A stretch of 8,695 nucleotides of DNA from an uncultured archaeon (lineage in GTDB: Archaea; Iainarchaeota; Iainarchaeia; Iainarchaeales; 0-14-0-20-30-16), in NCBI GenBank assembly GCA_964565725.1, contig CAZMGA010000021.1, forward strand, positions 1-8,695, written 5' to 3'. A program made the position numbers and the translations under genes. A model generated the notes under the pieces. That model was not told where the DNA came from, did no database searches, and saw nothing but the letters and a program-made list of their open reading frames with translations. The stretch's first letter is position 1, and each line of letters opens with the position of its first letter. Positions 1 through 8,695 of this stretch are shown one piece after another.

Positions 1-1139
1 CTGGAGGAGAGGAAATTTTAAAAGAAACTTATAAATTAACAGATCAAGGACAAAGAGAATTATGTTTAAGATATGAATTAACTTTTAAATTGGGAAAATT
101 AATTGCTTTAAATCCTACACTAAGATTACCATTAAAAAGATATGAAATAGGAAAAGTATTTAGAGATGGTCCAGTTAAAACAGGGAGACTAAGAGAATTT
201 ACTCAATGTGATGTTGATGTTGTTGGAATTAAAAACTTAGCATTAGATTCTGAGTTTATGAAAATGTCTTTTGATATATTTAATGAATTAGGTTTGCAAG
301 TCTATATACAAATTAATAATAGAAAATTATTATTTGGTTTATTTGCGAGTTGTAATATTGAAGAAAATGATTATATTGATGTTGCATTATCTTTAGATAA
401 ATTAGAAAAAATAGGCGAAAAAGAAGTTATAAAAGAATTAAGAGAAAAGAAAATAAAAGAACAAAGTATTGATGCATTATTTGATTTATTAAATGCTTCT
501 AATTCTATAAAAGAAAATAATAAAAAATTAGAATACTTAGAATCAAAATGTACAAATGAATTATTTAAAGAAGGTGCAAAAGAATTAAAAGAAATTTTTA
601 ATTATACTGAAGATTTAGGCATTAAAAAAGATTTTTATTTTATACCTATATTATCTAGAGGTTTAGGATATTATACTGGGCCTATGTGGGAAGTTTATTT
701 AAAAGATTCAAAAGTTAAATCAAGTGTTGCTGCAGGAGGTCGTTGGGATTCAATGGTAGCTAAATTTTTACAAAGCGATAGAGAATATCCTGCTTCGGGA
801 ATGACATTTGGGTTAGATGTTATTTATACTGCATTAATTGAAGATAATATTAAATTAGAAAACTTTACAAAAACACCTAAATTATTAATAATACCATTAG
901 ATAAATTAAATACTTGTTTATCAATAGCAAATACACTAAGAGAAAATAATATTTCAGTTAATATTGCTTATGATGATAAATTAAGTAAAGCGTTAGATTT
1001 TGCAAATAAAGAAGTTATACCATATGTTTTAGTTATAGGCAAAAAAGAAATTGAAAGTAAAATATATGGCTTAAAGAATATGATAACTGGCGAAACAAAA
1101 TTATTAACAGTAAATGATATTGTTAAAGAGCTTATTTGA
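1..1139 (+). CDS. hisS: Histidine--tRNA ligase (HisRS), 5'-truncated by the window edge; the frame is open from nt 3
   Basis: Frame 3 is open from nt 3 (GGEEILKETYKLTDQGQRELCLRYELTFKLGKL...). The TTG at nt 90 used by the ORF track is therefore internal, not the true start. Class II HisRS signatures are present: LRYELT, motif 2 YEIGKVFRDGPVKTGRLREFTQCDVDVVG, and the motif 3 region AAGGRWDSMV...ASGMTFGLD. The C-terminal anticodon-binding domain follows (LLIIPLD...IPYVLVIGKKEIE...LKNMITGE). Stop codon is TGA at 1137-1139. Confidence 0.9.
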   Translation, partial: GGEEILKETYKLTDQGQRELCLRYELTFKLGKLIALNPTLRLPLKRYEIGKVFRDGPVKTGRLREFTQCDVDVVGIKNLALDSEFMKMSFDIFNELGLQVYIQINNRKLLFGLFASCNIEENDYIDVALSLDKLEKIGEKEVIKELREKKIKEQSIDALFDLLNASNSIKENNKKLEYLESKCTNELFKEGAKELKEIFNYTEDLGIKKDFYFIPILSRGLGYYTGPMWEVYLKDSKVKSSVAAGGRWDSMVAKFLQSDREYPASGMTFGLDVIYTALIEDNIKLENFTKTPKLLIIPLDKLNTCLSIANTLRENNISVNIAYDDKLSKALDFANKEVIPYVLVIGKKEIESKIYGLKNMITGETKLLTVNDIVKELI

Positions 1140-2802
1140 CATTCAGATTAAAGAAATAATCATAAATTTCTTTTATCATAATAAGATCTGATTTATTTTT
1201 TTCAGTTATAATTTCTATTAACTCTTCCTTAGTCATACATTGTTTGCAACCCCTATTAGAAAATATTAAGTGATCAGTTAATAACCCTAAATGTTCCCCT
1301 CGATATAAAACTGACTTATTCTTACGATTAAACAAAGAATTATATAAATCATCCAATTTATAGGAATTACTTATTACACATTTTGATATTCTTTGACATA
1401 AGTCTATAAATTTCAAATTTGTTGTAATATTACTTCTAATTGCTTTTGAATCATAATTTGTCCAACAAAATACTTCCTGAATTTTATTTTTATTTAAATA
1501 ATTCAAAAATAAATCTTTTTCATCAGGATATTTAAATTGATTTAATTCATTTTTATAATACAGGCCTATTAAAAATAATCTTCCTGGAATTACACCTTTT
1601 GATAATCCTGTTTCTACATCTAAAAAACAAACATCTTTTAATCTAAGATTAATATTCTTAATTATTTTAAATCCAGATTCATTAAATCTATCTAAAATAT
1701 AATCATATTTAATATTTAACTTTGATAATAATTTAGAAACAAACTCAGTTTCTAAAATCTTAATATTTCCTTTTAATAATTCTGATTTAATTAATACTAA
1801 ATCCGATGATAATTCTGGTTTATCAGATATTATTTTTGTTAAATTAGATAATAAAGATGTCAAACCACGTGGTCTTTTTACTTCAAAATCTTTAAACTCT
1901 TTTATGTCAATAGAATAGTTATTTGTATCAATTATAGCATAATACCCGAAAGCGGGATCTATATCTTGTTGTGAAACATTAATGATTTTAATATTATTAT
2001 AATCTTTGATCATACCAGACCAAATGTGTGAATGGCCACAAATAACCAATTTAGGAGAATATAATTTAATTGAATCAAATAAATCTTTAGAACCAATATG
2101 ATCAACACCAAACCTAACAGATAAATCCAAAATTCCTTTTGGAGGTACATGGGACAAATAAATATCTGCATAAACATTTGGTTTATTTAATATTTGAGTA
2201 TCTAAACCATAACTACAATTAACCCCAAAAATTGATAATCCATTATATTTTATTAAACCATCAATAGGTGCCAATTTAAATTGTAAATATATTCCATAAT
2301 CTTTTGAGAAGTCATAATATGATGGATCTTTTAAAGTTATTTTGCCTTTTGACGTCTCAGATATTATTTTAGATTTAAGTTTATTTATAAAAATATTTTC
2401 TTGATTAATTCTAAAAAATAACTTTTTATCAAAAAAAATGACCGAATCATCATTACCTACAACATAAAAAAAAGAACGATTTAATAAAAAATCTGTTTTA
2501 TCGGGATAATCACTAAATGTTTTTTTCTTAAAATTATTATAAAAATGTATGAATTGTTCTCTAATATTTTTATTCTCACAAAAAATACTACTATTTATTG
2601 TATTTTTATTGAATTCTATAAAATGAGATTTAGTTTTTAAAAATAACTTTCTTTCTATCGGAACAATTCGCTTTAAATCATCACCAGCATACAATATAAT
2701 ATCTGGATTCTCTTCTAATATTATTGTTTTTAATTTATCTACATTTTGTACACGCCAATCTGAAAATGCAAATATTTTAATGTTTTTCACCCTCTGTAGC
2801 AT
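1132..2802 (-). CDS. Two-domain putative nuclease: N-terminal calcineurin-like metallophosphoesterase fused to a C-terminal RNase H-fold (YprB/DEDD-like) exonuclease domain
   Basis: 556-aa ORF with ATG at 2802-2800 and TAA at 1134-1132. The metallophosphoesterase motifs occur in the expected order: FAFSDWR (res 11-17), LYAGDD (37-42), VVGNDD (114-119), LSHVPP (216-221), ICGHSH (254-259). The C-terminal ~165 aa carry CFLDVETGL (392-400), LFLIGLYY, CWTNYDSKAI (446-455) and KNKSDLIMIKEIYDYF (535-550). This is the acidic-residue pattern of YprB-type RNase H-like (Pfam RNase_H_2-like) 3'-5' exonuclease domains. Domain calls are by eye only. Confidence 0.72.
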   Translation of the reverse strand: MLQRVKNIKIFAFSDWRVQNVDKLKTIILEENPDIILYAGDDLKRIVPIERKLFLKTKSHFIEFNKNTINSSIFCENKNIREQFIHFYNNFKKKTFSDYPDKTDFLLNRSFFYVVGNDDSVIFFDKKLFFRINQENIFINKLKSKIISETSKGKITLKDPSYYDFSKDYGIYLQFKLAPIDGLIKYNGLSIFGVNCSYGLDTQILNKPNVYADIYLSHVPPKGILDLSVRFGVDHIGSKDLFDSIKLYSPKLVICGHSHIWSGMIKDYNNIKIINVSQQDIDPAFGYYAIIDTNNYSIDIKEFKDFEVKRPRGLTSLLSNLTKIISDKPELSSDLVLIKSELLKGNIKILETEFVSKLLSKLNIKYDYILDRFNESGFKIIKNINLRLKDVCFLDVETGLSKGVIPGRLFLIGLYYKNELNQFKYPDEKDLFLNYLNKNKIQEVFCWTNYDSKAIRSNITTNLKFIDLCQRISKCVISNSYKLDDLYNSLFNRKNKSVLYRGEHLGLLTDHLIFSNRGCKQCMTKEELIEIITEKNKSDLIMIKEIYDYFFNLNVK

Positions 2803-3331
2803 GTAATAATTTTAATATTTCATTTGCAAATTTTTCTGCATGCATTGGACCTTCAGCAGTAACTATATTTTTATCTACAACTACAAAGTCTTTTGAATAA
2901 TCACAACCATATTGTTCTAATACTTTATCTGTATTTGCATTATATTCAGAATCAAATCCTAACCAACAAGTTGCTTTTTTATTTTTTAATATTCCAGACT
3001 TGGCTAAAATAGTTGGCGCCCAACAAATTGCACCTATAATTTTATTTAATTTATAAGCATTTTCTGCAATTAAAATAGTTTCTTTCTTTTTTCTAATTAT
3101 TGGTGTTCCAGCACCACCAACAAAAATAATTGCATCGTATTCTTTAATTTTTGGGATTATTTCTTCTAAAATTAATGATACTTTATAATCTAAACCAAAT
3201 GTACCTTTTGCTAAACCTTTTTGAGTACTTGCAACATCTATTTGTATATTAAATTTTTCAAATATTTCTTTTGGTTTTGAAAATTCCCAGTCCTGAAAAT
3301 TTCTAAATGCAATTATCATTAATAATTTCAT
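2777..3331 (-). CDS. DJ-1/PfpI family protein (class I glutamine amidotransferase-like fold)
   Basis: 184-aa ORF with ATG at 3331-3329 and TAA at 2779-2777. Family hallmarks are MIIAFRNFQDWEF (conserved acidic residue), YDAIIFVGGAG, the nucleophile elbow IGAICWAPTILAKSG (Cys103) and VVVDKNIVTAEGP. Its 3' end overlaps the start of the downstream fusion gene by 26 nt. Confidence 0.85.
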   Translation of the reverse strand: MKLLMIIAFRNFQDWEFSKPKEIFEKFNIQIDVASTQKGLAKGTFGLDYKVSLILEEIIPKIKEYDAIIFVGGAGTPIIRKKKETILIAENAYKLNKIIGAICWAPTILAKSGILKNKKATCWLGFDSEYNANTDKVLEQYGCDYSKDFVVVDKNIVTAEGPMHAEKFANEILKLLHATEGEKH

Positions 3332-3379
3332 AAAGAAATAAATACAAAACTATTTATAATTATATTACATATTATATTC
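3332..3379. promoter_or_regulatory. Divergent 48-nt promoter spacer with a single central TATA-like box, possibly used in both directions (leaderless transcripts)
   Basis: This is the only real intergenic gap in the window. TTTATAA at 3353-3359 is centred 25 nt from the minus-strand ATG (3331) and 24 nt from the plus-strand ATG (3380). An A-rich stretch (caaaac, 3345-3350) lies immediately 5' of the box on the + strand, which would fit a BRE. No Shine-Dalgarno-like purine tract precedes either start. Confidence 0.4.
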
Positions 3380-4528
3380 ATGGCTGAAGAAATTTATATT
3401 AATAAATTTGATAATTTAATTAAATCTATTGAAAACGAAAAGAAAAAAGGCAAAATCTTAATAGCACAACTAGCTCCAGCAGTTAGAATTACATTAGGGG
3501 AAGAATTTGGATATACTGTAGGAGAAGATTTAACAAAAAAATGTTTTAATATATTAAAACAATTAGGATTTGATTATGTTTTTGACACCCCATTAGGTGC
3601 AGATTTGGCTGTTTATGAAGAAGTTTGTATATTAAAACAATTATTAGACTCTAATGATAAAAGTTTTTTTCCATTATATAACTCTTGTTGTATAGGTTGG
3701 AAACAATATGCTAAACGAATGCATCCCTATTTAATGCCCCACATATCCTCAATTGGATCACCAAACCAGATTGTAGGGTCAATAGCTAAAAATTATTTTA
3801 ATAAAAAAATTAATAAAAAAGTTGAAGATATTATAGTTGTAGGAATTATGCCATGTACTTTAAAAAAATTTGAAACTTTAGATACATTTGATTACTTTGA
3901 AAATAATAAAAAAAAGAATTCTAAATTTGTAGATTATGTTATAACTACTGTAGAATTAGCACAATGGATCAAAAATAAAAATTTAGACTTTGAAAACATA
4001 AATGACATTGAAGTAATAAATACAGCATCAAGAGAAGGAACTATTTTTGGGGTAACTGGAGGCATAACAGAATCTATTTTAACAGCTTTTGCAAAATATA
4101 TAGGAGAAGAAAAAGAAATATTAGATTTTAGAGAAAATGAAGAATTACGAACCTATAAAGTAAAAATTGGGAAATATGAATTAAATGTTGCTATTGTTTT
4201 TGGGGTTAATCAAATAAATAAAATTTTAGAAAGAATTTCTAATGGAGAACAATATCATTTTGTTGAAATGATGTTTTGCCCTAATGGTTGTGTTGGTGGC
4301 CCAGGACAACCTATGGCATCAGAAAGTGTTTTAGAAGAAAGGGCCAAGGCTATGAGAAATTGTGCAGATAAAATTCACAGAAAAACTTGTTTTGATAATT
4401 CAGCTTTATTAAAAATTTATTCAGAATTAAATCTAAAACCAAATGATGAAAAAGTAAAGAATTTGTTTCATATAAAAGAAGAAAATATTAGAAAACCAAA
4501 AAAGATTTTAAGTTGGCCTATTGATTAA
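3380..4528 (+). CDS. hydA: [FeFe]-hydrogenase catalytic subunit, H-cluster domain only (ultraminimal, no accessory Fe-S domains)
   Basis: 382-aa ORF with ATG at 3380 and TAA at 4526-4528. It is colinear with the H-domain of clostridial HydA. Matching blocks are QLAPAVRITLGEEFG, FDTPLGADL and L1 NSCCIGW (Cys103/104, nt 3686-3691). They continue with SIGSPNQI, L2 MPCTLKKFE (Cys159, nt 3854-3856) and TIFGVTGGITES. The last two are L3 QYHFVEMMFCPNGCVGGPGQP (Cys300/304, nt 4277-4291) and the small-subunit-like tail NSALLKIYSELNLKP. There is no CxxCxxCxxxC ferredoxin motif anywhere in the protein. Confidence 0.9.
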   Translation: MAEEIYINKFDNLIKSIENEKKKGKILIAQLAPAVRITLGEEFGYTVGEDLTKKCFNILKQLGFDYVFDTPLGADLAVYEEVCILKQLLDSNDKSFFPLYNSCCIGWKQYAKRMHPYLMPHISSIGSPNQIVGSIAKNYFNKKINKKVEDIIVVGIMPCTLKKFETLDTFDYFENNKKKNSKFVDYVITTVELAQWIKNKNLDFENINDIEVINTASREGTIFGVTGGITESILTAFAKYIGEEKEILDFRENEELRTYKVKIGKYELNVAIVFGVNQINKILERISNGEQYHFVEMMFCPNGCVGGPGQPMASESVLEERAKAMRNCADKIHRKTCFDNSALLKIYSELNLKPNDEKVKNLFHIKEENIRKPKKILSWPID

Positions 4529-4530
4529 TT

Positions 4531-4629
4531 ATGAAATCAGATGTAATTTGTCCATATTGTAATACAGAATTAGAAATTAGTTGGAATATTGAAGATTTAG
4601 ATACTATTCTTAACTTTAATTGTCCCTAG
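4531..4629 (+). CDS. N-terminal zinc-ribbon segment (CPYC-x20-CP-TAG-C) ending at an in-frame TAG; it is in the same frame as the ORF at 4684-5481 and is probably its true 5' end
   Basis: ATG at 4531 lies 2 nt after the hydA stop. The translation is MKSDVICPYCNTELEISWNIEDLDTILNFNCP*CKKKFRYSSKFAELIGHILGILFII... The TAG (4627-4629) sits at the x position of the second CPxC knuckle. The frame then stays open straight into the transmembrane helix of the downstream ORF. Confidence 0.5.
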   Translation: MKSDVICPYCNTELEISWNIEDLDTILNFNCP

Positions 4630-4683
4630 TGTAAGAAAAAATTTAGATATTCTTCTAAATTTGCAGAATTAATAGGGCACATA

Positions 4684-5481
4684 TTGGGGATTTTATTTAT
4701 TATAGGAATAGTTTTTGGTTTTATATGTTTAGGATATTATGGCATAATTTGGTTCATATCTTTATTTTCAAATGACACTTCAAATAATAATACAATAATA
4801 CAACAACAAGAATTAATTGCACAACAACAATATGAACAACAAAAAGCAATATTAAGAGCAGAACAAGCAGAAACAAAAAGAATACAAGCAGAAATGGATA
4901 AAATAAAACAAGAAATTGCAAATAGAGAATTAGAAAAACAATCCGAACAAAATCAAATAAAACAATATACATCTAAAGTCTTATTTGATGATAGTCAATT
5001 TAGAACAACGGCAAAAAAAATTGCATCTGGTTGTAATGGAGAACAAGAATGTCAATTATATAAAATCTATAGATATATAGTAACTAATTTTGACTATTAT
5101 TCAGATCCTAGAAATAATGAATATATTCAAGACCCTTATGAAACATGGAATTCTCAAGGTGGAGACTGTGAAGATTTAGGCATATTATTACAAACACTTT
5201 TAGAAAGTATTGGAATAAAAACATATTCTGTATTTACTACAAATCATTATTATGTTTTAGGGTGTATTGAAAATGCTAGTCAAGTATTAGATTATACTAA
5301 TTATGATATGCGAAAATTATATTCAAAATATTACGAAACAATAAGTTATTACAATTTAAATAGATTAGAATGTATACCTTTAGAACCTACTGCTGGAAAA
5401 TATGGTTTTCCTGGCGAATCTACTTGGAATTATAGTGAAGCTTATGATCCATTAACATTAGAAAAACATAATTTAACCTAA
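4684..5481 (+). CDS. Membrane-anchored transglutaminase-like (papain-fold) cysteine protease/transglutaminase family protein with a Gln/Glu-rich coiled-coil stalk
   Basis: 265-aa ORF from TTG 4684 as given in the track; the real start is likely ATG 4531 if the TAG is read through or is an error. The N-terminal TM helix is GILFIIGIVFGFICLGYYGIIWFISLF. A coiled-coil-like region follows (QQQELIAQQQYEQQKAILRAEQAETKRIQAEMDKIKQEIANRELEKQ). The transglutaminase core is YRYIVTNFDYYSD...QGGDCEDLGILLQTLLESIGIKTYSVFTTNHYYVLG...IPLEPT, with Cys162 (nt 5167-5169), His188 (nt 5245-5247) and an acidic third residue in LEPT. Stop codon is TAA at 5479-5481. Confidence 0.8.
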   Translation: MGILFIIGIVFGFICLGYYGIIWFISLFSNDTSNNNTIIQQQELIAQQQYEQQKAILRAEQAETKRIQAEMDKIKQEIANRELEKQSEQNQIKQYTSKVLFDDSQFRTTAKKIASGCNGEQECQLYKIYRYIVTNFDYYSDPRNNEYIQDPYETWNSQGGDCEDLGILLQTLLESIGIKTYSVFTTNHYYVLGCIENASQVLDYTNYDMRKLYSKYYETISYYNLNRLECIPLEPTAGKYGFPGESTWNYSEAYDPLTLEKHNLT

Positions 5482-6125
5482 TCTTTCCAGACATAGGTTA
5501 CTCTATGTTCTAAAAAACCTGTTTCTGTTTTGTAATTTAATTTTTTCAAGAAAGTTTCGCAATCTTTATCTGTAGTTTTTCCATCAATTATATGATAAGT
5601 TGCAATTGCTAAATTGATTTTATTATTATTTAATAACTCTTTTGCACCTTTTAAAACATGTAATTCTGAACCTTCTACATCCATCTTAATAAAATTAGGT
5701 ATTAAATTTAATTCTTTTGATATAGTATCTAATTTTGATACATCTATATCAATTGTTTTTTGATATTCGTTTTCAAAAATAAATGAAGATCCCCTTGAAG
5801 TTCGAGCATAAAATTTCTTTTTAGAATCAGAATCAAAAATACCTTTATTAATTGCAATAACATTAGTTAATTTGTTTAATTTAATATTTGCTAATAATTT
5901 TCTATAACTCACACTATCGGGTTCAAATGAAATTACTTTTCCTTTTGAACCTACTAATTTACTAGCTATAATTGTAAAACAACCTACATAAGAACCTAAA
6001 TCAAAAACAATATCTCCTTTTTTAGGCATATATTTTTTAAAATAACCAGACATAATCTCTAAATCTTTGTCTAAATTATTATTAGAGTGTATATTTAAAT
6101 TCATTATTTTGTATGTTAATTCCAT
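5478..6125 (-). CDS. FkbM-family SAM-dependent methyltransferase
   Basis: 215-aa ORF with ATG at 6125-6123; an alternative Met lies at 6104. The stop is TAG at 5480-5478. FkbM-type pattern: the SAM-binding loop VFDLGSYVGCFTIIAS, then GKVISFEPDSVSYRKLLANIKLNKLTNVIAINKG, and the diagnostic IKMDVEGSELHVLKGAKELL. Confidence 0.85.
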   Translation of the reverse strand: MELTYKIMNLNIHSNNNLDKDLEIMSGYFKKYMPKKGDIVFDLGSYVGCFTIIASKLVGSKGKVISFEPDSVSYRKLLANIKLNKLTNVIAINKGIFDSDSKKKFYARTSRGSSFIFENEYQKTIDIDVSKLDTISKELNLIPNFIKMDVEGSELHVLKGAKELLNNNKINLAIATYHIIDGKTTDKDCETFLKKLNYKTETGFLEHRVTYVWKD

Positions 6126-8695
6126 ACACTCACTGTCTTTTTAGGTCTAAAAATTAAATATGCTACAATACCTAAAGCAACAATTAAAGCTATACCAATT
6201 ATAATTACATAAGATACATTTTTATAAAATATTTCTGCAACAGCAGAATGATTTGTTAATTCTATAAAATCAGAAGATGTACTAATATAATCTTTTACAG
6301 CTTCAAATTTTCCAGTTACTTTTTCTTCAGGATAAGGTACTTTTAGAGAATAAATTCCTTCATATTCCGGAGTAAATTTAGCATAACCTAATTCATCAGT
6401 TTTAATAATCCAACTTTCACCATTATATAAAATAATTATATCTTGATTAATTATAGGATTTTTATCTGCATCTAAAATTTGAATTATTTGTAATTCTCCA
6501 ACACCTAATTTATTTTTATAATTTATATAATAAACTCCATCTTTCCAATAACCCTCATCAAATATAGTTATGTTTTTATTTTCATCTATTTTATTATCAG
6601 GTCCTTCTTTAGGACTTGGTTCAGGCGCATTAGGAACAGGAACATCTATTTTATCTTCAATATATTCATATTCTAAATCTATATTTATATTTTCTTTTAC
6701 ATTTACACCAAAAATTTCAATTTTTAAATTTGATAATACACTTGAAAAATAAATTTCATTTAATTTATTTACAACTAACAACTCTTGTTTTTCACTATTA
6801 ATTTTATTATATATTTTTTTATAATCATCAGAATCTTTAGGATAACCTGTAATATCTACTATTAAATTAGATATTTCTGTATTGTTAAACAAATTAGATA
6901 ATGATAAATCAATAGTATATTTTTCATTATTTTTTGATTTCCCATTAGTATTACCTAACTTAATATCTTTTGTAAATACAACCAAATCATCATTCATTAC
7001 ATTTACTTTAATATCTTTTTGTAAATTTATAGATTCATAATCCAAATCAAATGTTAATTCATAATTATTTCCAAGAGTATATATAAACTTTGTATTTATA
7101 GGTTCGTTATTTATTTTTACATTAGATAAATCTAATTTAAAATGGTTTACTAATAAAGTATTTTCAACTATATTATTACTAGTACTTTTATCATCGTCAA
7201 TATCCAAATAATATTTCATATTTAAATATCCTTTAGAATCTACTAAATTATAAATATCAGAATCATCTATATTTAATTCTATATTACCTTCATCTTCTAA
7301 ATCCTCTATATTAATTGTTTTTATTAATTCATAATTTGAATTATTTTTAACATATATTTTCATATTTGCAAAATCTACTTCACCCGTACCAGATTTAGTT
7401 ATTTTATAAGGAATTTTTAAAGTATTATTAGTATTAAATACATTAGGATTTGTAATTCTTAATCTATAATCATAATATTTTGTAGAAGACCCTTTAGATC
7501 CAGTTGTTTGTTCACCCTCTTCATTATATTTTACTAAAGGATAATAATCATAAAAATTTGTGTCAACTTCAGATATTAATCCTAATATACTAAATCTAGA
7601 ATCATTTACACCATCAGAACCCTCTATATTTTGACTAATTCCTGAATATATATCCTCATATGCTAAATTTATAGTATCTTCTGTATCTAATAAATCTTCA
7701 GCAAACCAAAAATTACCACCAATTGTAGAATAATAATCTCTATATTCATAAGTTATAGGTATTTGTGATCTTATAGAAGCATTACTAGAATAATCTAAAT
7801 TAAAATTTATATCCAAATTTGAATTTATATCTCCAAAAAACCAATATTTTGTTAAATCTAAAATATTAGCATCTAAAAAAACATTATTAGATATTTTTCC
7901 AGAAACATTTGAATCTAAAGAATTAAAAAAATACCCTAAATTAATAAATGAATAAAGCATATTAAAAGTATTAATATTCGTGTCTATAAAATTAAATACA
8001 TTACCATCTATATAACCATTAATAGAATATATATTTACATTATTTAAATCACAATTATTTAAATCTATTAAACTATTATTTAAATTATAATATACCCCAT
8101 TTGAAATAAAAGTATTAACATCTAAATTATTTTCAAGATTTTCAAAATAAAATGGAGTACCATCACCATAAATATTTGCATCTATATATATTTTTGAAAT
8201 GTTTGAATCTATTGTTTTTATTATTCTTGAATTTTCATCCAAATAACTTGTAAAATAATCTACATTTAATTCATCAATATTTGATGCATTAATATCTACC
8301 AAATTAAAATTATATAAATTTAAGGTATCTTCGACAGATTCACTAAAAAGTATATTATTTAAAACACTATTTTCAACATAAATCAAATTCCCATTACTTA
8401 AATTCGTATCAAAAGCTGATCCAATATTAATGGTGTTTATTACAGTATTATTTTTTAAAGATATATAAGAATCATTTAATCTATTTAAAAAATTCAAATC
8501 CGATTCTATATTTACATTTAAAATATTTATATTAGAATCATCGAATATAATTGAATTTGATCTATTATTTGGACGCAATATGTTAGTATTAAAATTATAT
8601 AAATTTATATTGTTAATATCTCCAAACATAAATAAACTTGCGCTAGTATTAATTATAGAATTATAAAAATTTATATCTAAATATTCTATATTAGA
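6116..8695 (-). CDS. Giant Asn-rich secreted/surface protein with beta-helix-like repeats, beta-sandwich domains and a C-terminal TM anchor; the N-terminus lies beyond the window
   Basis: The track starts this ORF at Met 8629. The same frame stays open to nt 8695 (...SNIEYLDINFYNSIINTSASLFMFGDINN...) with the same repeat character, so at least 859 codons are visible and the 5' end is missing. From N to C the protein has N-[ILV]-x-[ILV]-rich repeats and a Pro-rich linker VPVPNAPEPSPKEGPD (nt 6596-6643). Next comes a carboxypeptidase-regulatory-like beta-sandwich (about nt 6296-6574; DADKNPIINQDIIILYNGESWIIKTDELGYAKFTPEYEGIYSLKV). The protein ends in the TM helix YVIIIGIALIVALGIVAYLIF followed by RPKK (nt 6149-6211). 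Stop codon is TAA at 6118-6116. Confidence 0.8.
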   Translation of the reverse strand, partial: SNIEYLDINFYNSIINTSASLFMFGDINNINLYNFNTNILRPNNRSNSIIFDDSNINILNVNIESDLNFLNRLNDSYISLKNNTVINTINIGSAFDTNLSNGNLIYVENSVLNNILFSESVEDTLNLYNFNLVDINASNIDELNVDYFTSYLDENSRIIKTIDSNISKIYIDANIYGDGTPFYFENLENNLDVNTFISNGVYYNLNNSLIDLNNCDLNNVNIYSINGYIDGNVFNFIDTNINTFNMLYSFINLGYFFNSLDSNVSGKISNNVFLDANILDLTKYWFFGDINSNLDINFNLDYSSNASIRSQIPITYEYRDYYSTIGGNFWFAEDLLDTEDTINLAYEDIYSGISQNIEGSDGVNDSRFSILGLISEVDTNFYDYYPLVKYNEEGEQTTGSKGSSTKYYDYRLRITNPNVFNTNNTLKIPYKITKSGTGEVDFANMKIYVKNNSNYELIKTINIEDLEDEGNIELNIDDSDIYNLVDSKGYLNMKYYLDIDDDKSTSNNIVENTLLVNHFKLDLSNVKINNEPINTKFIYTLGNNYELTFDLDYESINLQKDIKVNVMNDDLVVFTKDIKLGNTNGKSKNNEKYTIDLSLSNLFNNTEISNLIVDITGYPKDSDDYKKIYNKINSEKQELLVVNKLNEIYFSSVLSNLKIEIFGVNVKENINIDLEYEYIEDKIDVPVPNAPEPSPKEGPDNKIDENKNITIFDEGYWKDGVYYINYKNKLGVGELQIIQILDADKNPIINQDIIILYNGESWIIKTDELGYAKFTPEYEGIYSLKVPYPEEKVTGKFEAVKDYISTSSDFIELTNHSAVAEIFYKNVSYVIIIGIALIVALGIVAYLIFRPKKTVSVWN

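Follow-up and report, generated by a model that had tools for sequence, protein, structure and literature searches.

A minimal group A1-like [FeFe]-hydrogenase consisting of the H-domain alone, encoded by a probable DPANN archaeon

Results

The hydA locus

The window analyzed here is a stretch of 8,695 nucleotides (nt) of DNA (contig CAZMGA010000021.1 of assembly GCA_964565725.1, positions 1 to 8,695) that carries hydA, a plus-strand gene at positions 3380–4528. Its product, of 382 amino acids (aa) and 43.8 kDa, comprises the H-domain of an [FeFe]-hydrogenase alone and matches the minimal, group A1-like type of DPANN archaea. The open reading frame (ORF), Pfam matches, similarity to the clostridial hydrogenase CpI, an AlphaFold2 (AF2) model and the ratio of nonsynonymous to synonymous substitution rates (dN/dS) all bear on this assignment. 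In the ORF listing the gene starts with ATG and ends with TAA. An in-frame stop ends at 3325, and the ATG at 3380 is the first start codon after that stop. A mere 48 nt (3332–3379) lie between this ATG and a divergent DJ-1/PfpI gene on the minus strand (2777–3331). An N-terminal domain therefore cannot be hidden upstream, in agreement with the initial annotation, which had called a missed domain unlikely. A longer N-terminus or a wrong start was likewise considered and is ruled out by the stop ahead of ATG 3380. The H-domain is preceded by 21 residues, compared with a median of ~218 in the long forms of the family. Nine cysteines are present (positions 55, 83, 103, 104, 159, 300, 304, 328 and 337), and the 382-aa protein contains no CxxCxxCxxxC motif.

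The intergenic region (3332–3379) contains a TATA-like TTTATA hexamer at 3353–3358, which starts at −27 from the hydA ATG and corresponds to the TATA box of the initial annotation. Two relatives (L003 and L087) have TTATATAAA at a similar position ahead of hydA. Taken alone, the element is weak evidence, as the chance occurrence of TTTAWA in a 12-nt slot is ~0.07 at a guanine-plus-cytosine (GC) content of 24%. No GGAGG-like Shine-Dalgarno motif was found within 20 nt of the start in any of the six complete genes of the window (0/6), as had been annotated. These features make the 48-nt region a likely promoter of the leaderless archaeal type. In the 87%-identical relative, the annotated start (MAFLVMAEE...; L003/L004, 10001–10015) is probably five codons too far upstream, because the conserved TATA-like element lies ~27 nt before an internal ATG that aligns with the start in the window. 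Use of the five-residue-longer start would leave the element ~16 nt from the start, and that start was rejected.

H-cluster motifs and residue mapping

Residues were mapped onto CpI in a MAFFT alignment of 265 sequences that included the CpI H-domain. Its register has an independent anchor in the PDB chains of the variants E282A and S357T, whose differences fall at the expected columns. All three H-cluster motif patterns, L1 (T/N)SCCxxW, L2 MPCxxKxxE and L3 ExMxCxxGCxxGxGQP, are present on the plus strand. Motif L1, NSCCIGW (residues 101–107; 3683–3700), provides the relay residue Cys103 (CpI C299) and the [4Fe-4S]H ligand Cys104 (C300), with Ile in place of Pro301. Motif L2, MPCTLKKFE (residues 157–165; 3848–3874), contains Met157 (M353), Cys159 (C355), Lys162 (K358) and Glu165 (E361). 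Motif L3, EMMFCPNGCVGGPGQP (residues 296–311; 4265–4312), contributes Met298 (M497), Cys300 (C499) and Cys304 (C503, the bridge to the 2Fe subcluster). Ser123 and Glu81 align with S319 and E279. The mapped H-cluster, relay and second-sphere residues are invariant in a 63-sequence family alignment. Every residue named in the initial annotation (the four cluster cysteines, Cys103, Lys162, Met157, Met298 and Ser123) thus finds its CpI counterpart, and no misalignment was seen. The ORF, motif scan and CpI alignment also uphold its description of a 382-aa, H-domain-only protein with a complete set of H-cluster ligands, nine cysteines and no F-clusters.

CpI (M3, group A1) shares the H-domain fold, with one-to-one correspondence at C299, C300, C355, C499, C503, K358, M353, M497, E279 and S319, but has ~210 N-terminal residues with four accessory clusters that are absent from the hydA protein. 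Five further CpI residues, Pro301, Ser357, Gly507, Glu282 and Arg286, are Ile, Leu, Pro, Ile and Leu, respectively, in the hydA protein. The first three of these changes (Pro301 to Ile, Ser357 to Leu and Gly507 to Pro) are common to essentially all short forms from DPANN archaea. An extra Fe-S site formed by the non-ligand residues C55, C83, C328 and C337 was considered and rejected, these cysteines being conserved neither in the 87% relative nor across the subclade described below.

Family scores and predicted fold

The Pfam profile Fe_hyd_lg_C was matched over its entire length (positions 1–245 of 245) with an E-value of 8.4e-69 and 232.3 bits against a cut-off of 22.1. Of the two Pfam families proposed for checking in the initial annotation, this one was clearly found, whereas Fe_hyd_SSU, at residues 316–365, scored 20.1 bits, just under its gathering score of 24. 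That C-terminal small-subunit-like segment (4325–4474, plus strand) aligns to CpI 517–572 and forms three helices in the AF2 model (residues 315–330, 341–349 and 357–363), with His364 aligned to CpI H569. The best sequence match in the PDB was HydA1 of the bifurcating HydABC complex of T. kivui (4.4e-63). CpI followed at ~1e-58, with query residues 22–367 aligned to CpI 222–572. Among the NCBIfam models, scores were highest for A6 (295.1 bits), group A (267.7) and the clostridial type (235.4), compared with 120.7 for B1.

The AF2 model, built from the 63-sequence family alignment, has a mean predicted local distance difference test score (pLDDT) of 90.6 and a predicted template modeling score (pTM) of 0.91, with disorder confined to the last few residues. 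Foldseek superposed it on the CpI H-domain with an E-value of 1.9e-31, a template modeling score (TMq) of 0.84 and a root-mean-square deviation of 3.5 over 370 columns at 32% identity. The superposition on CpI recommended at the outset thus supports the family assignment.

A probable minimal group A1 enzyme

Homology searching returned ~100 clusters (at 90% identity) of full-length, H-domain-only proteins of 291–394 aa. The named short homologs belong to Micrarchaeota, Bilamarchaeaceae, Anstonellales and Iainarchaeum, and are followed by bacterial multi-domain enzymes at ≤39% identity. The nearest long homologs are bacterial (Thermosipho group A6, 39%). A scan of GTDB genomes with the family alignment gave, among the matches listed, almost only bacterial group A loci at 33–40% identity. 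In a neighbor-joining (NJ) tree of 264 sequences with 100 bootstraps, the hydA protein falls in a 13-member clade (support 100) whose members are 60–87% identical. This subclade is nested in a 106-member clade (support 79) made up exclusively of proteins of 291–394 aa. Every traceable short sequence named as Micrarchaeota, Bilamarchaeaceae, Anstonellales or Iainarchaeum lies within the larger clade, and its taxon-named members in the sampled set are all DPANN. The tree accordingly separates the protein from ordinary bacterial group A enzymes, the placement that the initial annotation had regarded as refuting its view. A predicted protein of 4,122 aa (P0242) in the collected set contains seven stretches that resemble the H-domain, each sharing ~31% identity with the query. 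Fusion or misprediction may have produced this apparent multi-hydrogenase, which is possibly of eukaryotic origin or an artefact of assembly.

Two classes of short archaeal enzyme have been described. Minimal group A1 enzymes of DPANN archaea average 363 aa, and two members, Mu and Ia, evolve H2 once matured with [2Fe]adt (PMC11216029). The term ultraminimal denotes group E, with a mean of 286 aa, shortened loops L1–L6 and 28% identity to the nearest homolog that has been characterized, the group C enzyme TmHydS (PMC11216029). Both were reported in the 2024 work of Greening and colleagues, to which the initial annotation had thought the protein might belong; it does appear to belong there, as minimal group A1. 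The label ultraminimal has to be dropped, since the protein has 382 aa and an H-domain span of 345 residues, compared with 351 in CpI. The group E hallmarks (about 286 aa, condensed loops and groups C/D as nearest relatives) are absent, and the best sequence and fold matches are to group A. The full-size H-domain, the best scores to group A models and structures and the position in a short DPANN clade together indicate the minimal group A1 type. By size, clade and published description, the hydA protein matches a member of this biochemically validated class.

Comparison with characterized enzymes refines this picture. Mu (Micrarchaeota UBA95) and Ia (Ca. Iainarchaeum andersonii) likewise consist of the H-domain alone, are monomeric, lack F-clusters and span ~360–380 aa (PMC11216029). 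Their class also shares a DPANN host from engineered or groundwater settings that are anoxic, the full set of H-cluster cysteines and the lack of maturases nearby, and proteins named Micrarchaeota and Iainarchaeum sit in the same clade as the hydA protein. To those named proteins, however, it is only 44–49% identical, and it lies in its own well-supported 13-member subclade. Group E enzymes such as Fm (Ca. Forterrea multitransposorum, 33 kDa) have in common with it a DPANN host, a monomeric form, a single [4Fe-4S] plus 2Fe site and the absence of accessory clusters, but the hydA protein has 382 aa with an H-domain of CpI size and is 32–40% identical to group A enzymes. HydA1 of Chlamydomonas reinhardtii (M1, group A1) shares the H-domain-only layout, the three cluster motifs and the expected direct docking of ferredoxin. 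It is longer, as had been annotated (457 aa in PMC11216029; PDB chains of 442–457 aa), and an insertion divides its HMMER match into two stretches. The algal enzyme keeps its full proton path (E141, E144, R148, S189 and C169) and is matured by HydEFG, whereas the hydA protein is hydrophobic at the surface end of the path.

Selection and replication across assemblies

Comparison of hydA with the 87%-identical relative L003 gave a dN/dS of 0.13 (Nei–Gojobori; dN 0.077, dS 0.60). An identical hydA protein is encoded in three independent assemblies, the window and two others. The latter two are 100% identical to the window over 1.8 kb and 99.2% identical over 3.3 kb, respectively, with all differences outside hydA. 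The low dN/dS and the recurrence of the same protein in independent assemblies show that hydA is an intact gene maintained by purifying selection.

Host and genomic context

The window, which makes up the entire contig, has 24% GC, is 97–99% coding and contains four gene overlaps, so the compaction stressed in the initial annotation is borne out. It opens with hisS (1–1139, plus strand), which is cut by the contig start and serves both as a conserved synteny partner of hydA and as a taxonomic marker. Among the best 98 hisS matches, the named ones are all archaeal and mostly DPANN (Woesearchaeota, Micrarchaeota, Huberarchaeum and Pacearchaeota), the exceptions being a few Asgard sequences and one from Marsarchaeota. 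Bacterial names (Firmicutes) appear lower in the match list only, at 46–51% identity. The contigs that carry the closest hisS matches are those of the closest hydA relatives. An NJ tree of hisS did not resolve the phylum, with bootstrap values <45 at the deeper nodes.

Related contigs share the gene order hisS, DJ-1/PfpI, hydA, a transglutaminase-like gene and an FkbM methyltransferase gene. The linkage of hisS and hydA holds throughout the subclade: the two are adjacent in L003–L006, whereas 4 kb separate them in L087 and ~10 kb in L089. Two minus-strand genes separate them in the window, one for a 556-aa metallophosphoesterase-like protein and the DJ-1/PfpI gene. Genes of archaeal/eukaryotic type accompany hydA on these contigs: those for NMD3 and LSm in the 87% relative, and those for TFB, both subunits of DNA polymerase D (PolD; DP1 and DP2), NurA and an archaeal-type PheRS beta subunit in a 60%-identical relative. 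The best named match of this DP2 is Ca. Iainarchaeum sp. (51%), followed by many entries labeled Diapherotrites (46–48%). The hydA tree agrees, placing the window's clade as sister, weakly, to an Iainarchaeum-named protein. The sequences come from samples of anaerobic digesters and biogas plants. Rfam, searched with the window and three related loci, gave no match to an rRNA, a tRNA or any other RNA marker. The hisS matches and the archaeal genes of the relatives (TFB, PolD, NMD3 and LSm) support a DPANN host, in line with the DPANN-like context originally perceived. The relatives point to a probable host within this group, namely a symbiont related to Iainarchaeota/Diapherotrites that lives in anaerobic digesters.

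No conserved partner subunit was found beside hydA; the genes on either side are not the same in the window, L003, L087 and L089. Oxidative-stress genes (Fe-SOD, peroxiredoxin, Ogg and DJ-1) recur near the gene for this O2-sensitive enzyme.

Other genes of the window

Directly downstream of hydA, a transglutaminase-like gene (4531–5481, plus strand) occupies one frame with a single in-frame TAG at 4627–4629. The TAG interrupts the second CxxC of a zinc ribbon at the N-terminus (MKSDVICPYC...NFNCP*CKKKF), which is followed by a transmembrane helix, a coiled coil and the transglutaminase-like core. Two independent assemblies (L001 and L002) have the same TAG. The 87% relative encodes an unbroken 314-aa transglutaminase-like protein with Lys (CYKC) at this position. 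Either a nonsense mutation of recent date, with translation restarting at TTG 4684, or read-through could account for the TAG. The neighboring FkbM gene also ends in TAG.

On the minus strand, an 837-aa protein (6116–8629) rich in Asn (15%) and Ile (12%) had no Pfam or NCBIfam match. It lacks an obvious N-terminal signal peptide and has a single C-terminal transmembrane helix followed by a short basic tail. These features suggest that it may be a tail-anchored surface protein. The initial annotation had called it giant; at 837 aa it is large, but not giant. The 556-aa protein (1132–2802, minus strand) gives weak calcineurin-like phosphoesterase matches in its N-terminal half only, its C-terminal half being without assignment. 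In L087 a 549-aa gene without a Pfam match occupies the same position and orientation, directly upstream of hydA.

Discussion

Proposed function

We consider the hydA protein to be, with reasonable probability, a monomeric, ferredoxin-dependent, H2-evolving minimal group A1 (M1) [FeFe]-hydrogenase of a DPANN archaeon, whose host would be a digester symbiont related to Iainarchaeota/Diapherotrites. Homology to Mu and Ia suggests H2 evolution, and the ferredoxin partner, the catalytic direction and the route of 2Fe subcluster assembly are likewise proposed by analogy. In this proposal the fold would be the H-domain alone, with Cys104, Cys159, Cys300 and Cys304 holding the [4Fe-4S]H subcluster. 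Cys304 would bridge to [2Fe]H in a pocket lined by Lys162, Met157, Met298, Ala32-Pro33 and Phe223. As accessory clusters are absent, reduced ferredoxin would have to dock, as it does with algal HydA1, onto the exposed [4Fe-4S]H cubane itself. The ferredoxin could be reduced by, for example, a 2-oxoacid:ferredoxin oxidoreductase encoded elsewhere. Protons would reach the azadithiolate bridge via Cys103, water, Glu81 and Ser123. Release of H2 would then dispose of fermentative reductant, a role that has been inferred for the class (PMC11216029).

Several observations weigh against this reading. The group A models of NCBIfam all scored below their cut-offs (TIGR02512, 267.7 of 405.95; NF040763 for A6, 295.1 of 765; NF040762 for the clostridial type, 235.4 of 900). 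The main reason is that NF040763 and NF040762 model full-length multi-domain proteins, and the alignment covers their C-terminal part alone, from ~position 212. TIGR02512, however, aligned over positions 68–374 of 375 and still fell short. The phylum was placed via the contig of the 60%-identical relative, not from the window itself. Neither the window nor the ±10 kb around hydA in L003, L004, L087 and L089 contains a hydE, hydF, hydG, ferredoxin or pyruvate:ferredoxin oxidoreductase gene. The remaining counterpoints concern the residues of the outer proton pathway and the CpI mutants that probe them.

The proton pathway

In CpI numbering the proton path runs C299-E279-S319-E282, with R286 in addition, and three of these five residues are kept (C103, E81 and S123). 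On the proton-path helix (3617–3643, plus strand), Glu80 and Glu81 (CpI E278 and E279) are retained, with Ile84 in place of E282 and Leu88 in place of R286. At the E282 position the 13-member subclade has Ile, Val, Ala or Asn and never an acidic residue (13/13), with Ile or Val in 11 members; at the R286 position all 13 have Leu or Ile. Other short forms of DPANN type carry Glu or Asp at 282 in 68 of 87 cases and Arg at 286 in five of 87, where Ala, Met and Leu predominate. The long forms have Glu at 282 in 125 of 130 sequences (Glu or Asp in 126) and Arg at 286 in 114 of 130. The hydrophobic residues at these positions, with most other DPANN short forms acidic at 282, are the sole feature found beyond the published description of the class, in which differences in proton-transfer residues are noted for the archaeal enzymes in general (PMC11216029). 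The initial annotation had judged the protein to look catalytic. The intact inner relay (C299, E279 and S319) agrees with that judgment, but the replacements at E282 and R286 had been overlooked.

Mutagenesis of CpI gives an indication of what such changes may cost. The E282A variant retains ~50% activity, with rescue by water, whereas E282Q retains 0.4–8% (PMC6226526). The E282L variant is described as inherently low in activity (bioRxiv 10.64898/2026.09.22.753672). Hydrophobic residues at E282 and R286, seen alongside these mutant activities, suggest that turnover is possibly low or that protons enter differently. A proton-entry motif termed SHE has been proposed for CpI, consisting of E278, S320 and H569 (bioRxiv 10.64898/2026.09.22.753672). 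Its equivalents, Glu80, Ser124 and His364, are present in the hydA protein and its four closest relatives. Across the subclade, however, the H569 position is His in five members, Phe in four, Tyr in two and Cys in two. With the His not conserved, entry through this residue cannot serve the subclade in general. From the alignment, the inner relay appears intact while the outer entry point is uncertain, with either reduced turnover or another entry implied. We tentatively suggest, as a possibility that falls short of an expectation, that the subclade, which is probably Iainarchaeota-related, is a natural group A variant, hydrophobic at E282 and with Leu for R286, that is under strong purifying selection and has either a rewired proton entry or slow turnover.

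The Iainarchaeum-named sister group (P0048, P0059 and P0073) has Gly at the CpI E279 position, in the motif GADLIVVDGV. Replacement of E279 by Ala in CpI leaves ~0.1% activity. A 100-fold lower activity was reported for the published Iainarchaeum enzyme (PMC11216029). By analogy, the Gly might relate to this low activity.

Alternative explanations

Loss of the surface Glu/Arg pair (E282 and R286) may have left a real H-cluster enzyme with a rewired or crippled proton pathway, which we regard as fairly unlikely. A crippled enzyme would be slow, with a high overpotential, and possibly an H2 sensor or redox valve and not a bulk H2 producer. In a rewired one, protons could enter via His364 (H569) and Ser124 (S320), anchored by Glu80 (E278), and pass straight to Ser123. 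The uniform replacement of both residues in the subclade, set against the acidic 282 of most other DPANN short forms and the Glu and Arg of most long forms, speaks for such an alteration, as do the SHE equivalents in the hydA protein and its four closest relatives and the CpI data on E282Q, E282L, H569 and S320 (PMC6226526; bioRxiv 10.64898/2026.09.22.753672). Against it stand the variable H569 position across the subclade and the water rescue of CpI E282A to ~50% activity (PMC6226526). Archaeal enzymes that differ in their proton-transfer residues are, moreover, still active (PMC11216029). A Pfam search found no PAS or other signaling domain, although one would be expected in a sensory hydrogenase.

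The protein could also be a non-hydrogenase relic, either Nar1/NARF-like or an apo [4Fe-4S] protein without the 2Fe subcluster that serves Fe-S handling or electron transfer; this we hold to be very improbable. It would never have received the 2Fe subcluster because its host lacks HydEFG. The maturase genes missing from the window and from the relatives' flanks fit this idea, and full maturase sets occur in only five of 130 archaeal genomes that encode such hydrogenases (PMC11216029). Yet the residues specific to the 2Fe subcluster (K358, M353, M497, C299 and the bridging C503 in GCxxG(P/G)GQP) are invariant and under purifying selection, and DPANN homologs of the protein bind the cofactor and evolve H2 (PMC11216029). 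Nar1 typically has a Cys cluster at the N-terminus, which the hydA protein lacks. With that motif missing and K358, M353, M497 and C299 kept, the initial view that this is no Nar1/NARF-type relic holds.

That hydA is a fragment of an ordinary bacterial group A enzyme, its contig being bacterial or mis-binned, as the bacterial nearest long homologs (Thermosipho) and the mostly bacterial loci among the GTDB matches listed might suggest, is already refuted by a complete ORF with start, stop and 48-nt promoter region, by ~100 full-length short homologs, by syntenic relatives beside archaea-specific TFB, PolD, NMD3 and LSm genes and by hisS and DP2 genes whose best named matches are DPANN.

Implications

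The known distribution of hydrogenases is unchanged by hydA. What it adds to the recently recognized archaeal minimal [FeFe]-hydrogenases is a well-supported subclade from anaerobic digesters. The ~100 clusters at 90% identity in public data confirm that such 40-kDa single-domain enzymes are widespread; they are also under purifying selection. The practical value is modest, that of a compact scaffold for semi-synthetic H2 catalysts with natural hydrophobic residues at the E282/R286 gate. Like its relatives, the protein bears on how archaea without HydEFG build the 2Fe subcluster, and it could inform the current debate on proton entry in group A enzymes. If it is fully active, protons must enter off the Glu/Arg gate, which could be through His364 and Ser124 to Ser123, and the enzyme would be a compact natural test case for proton entry in [FeFe]-hydrogenases. 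If it is slow, it would show that DPANN symbionts retain a hydrogenase of low rate, which might act as a redox valve.

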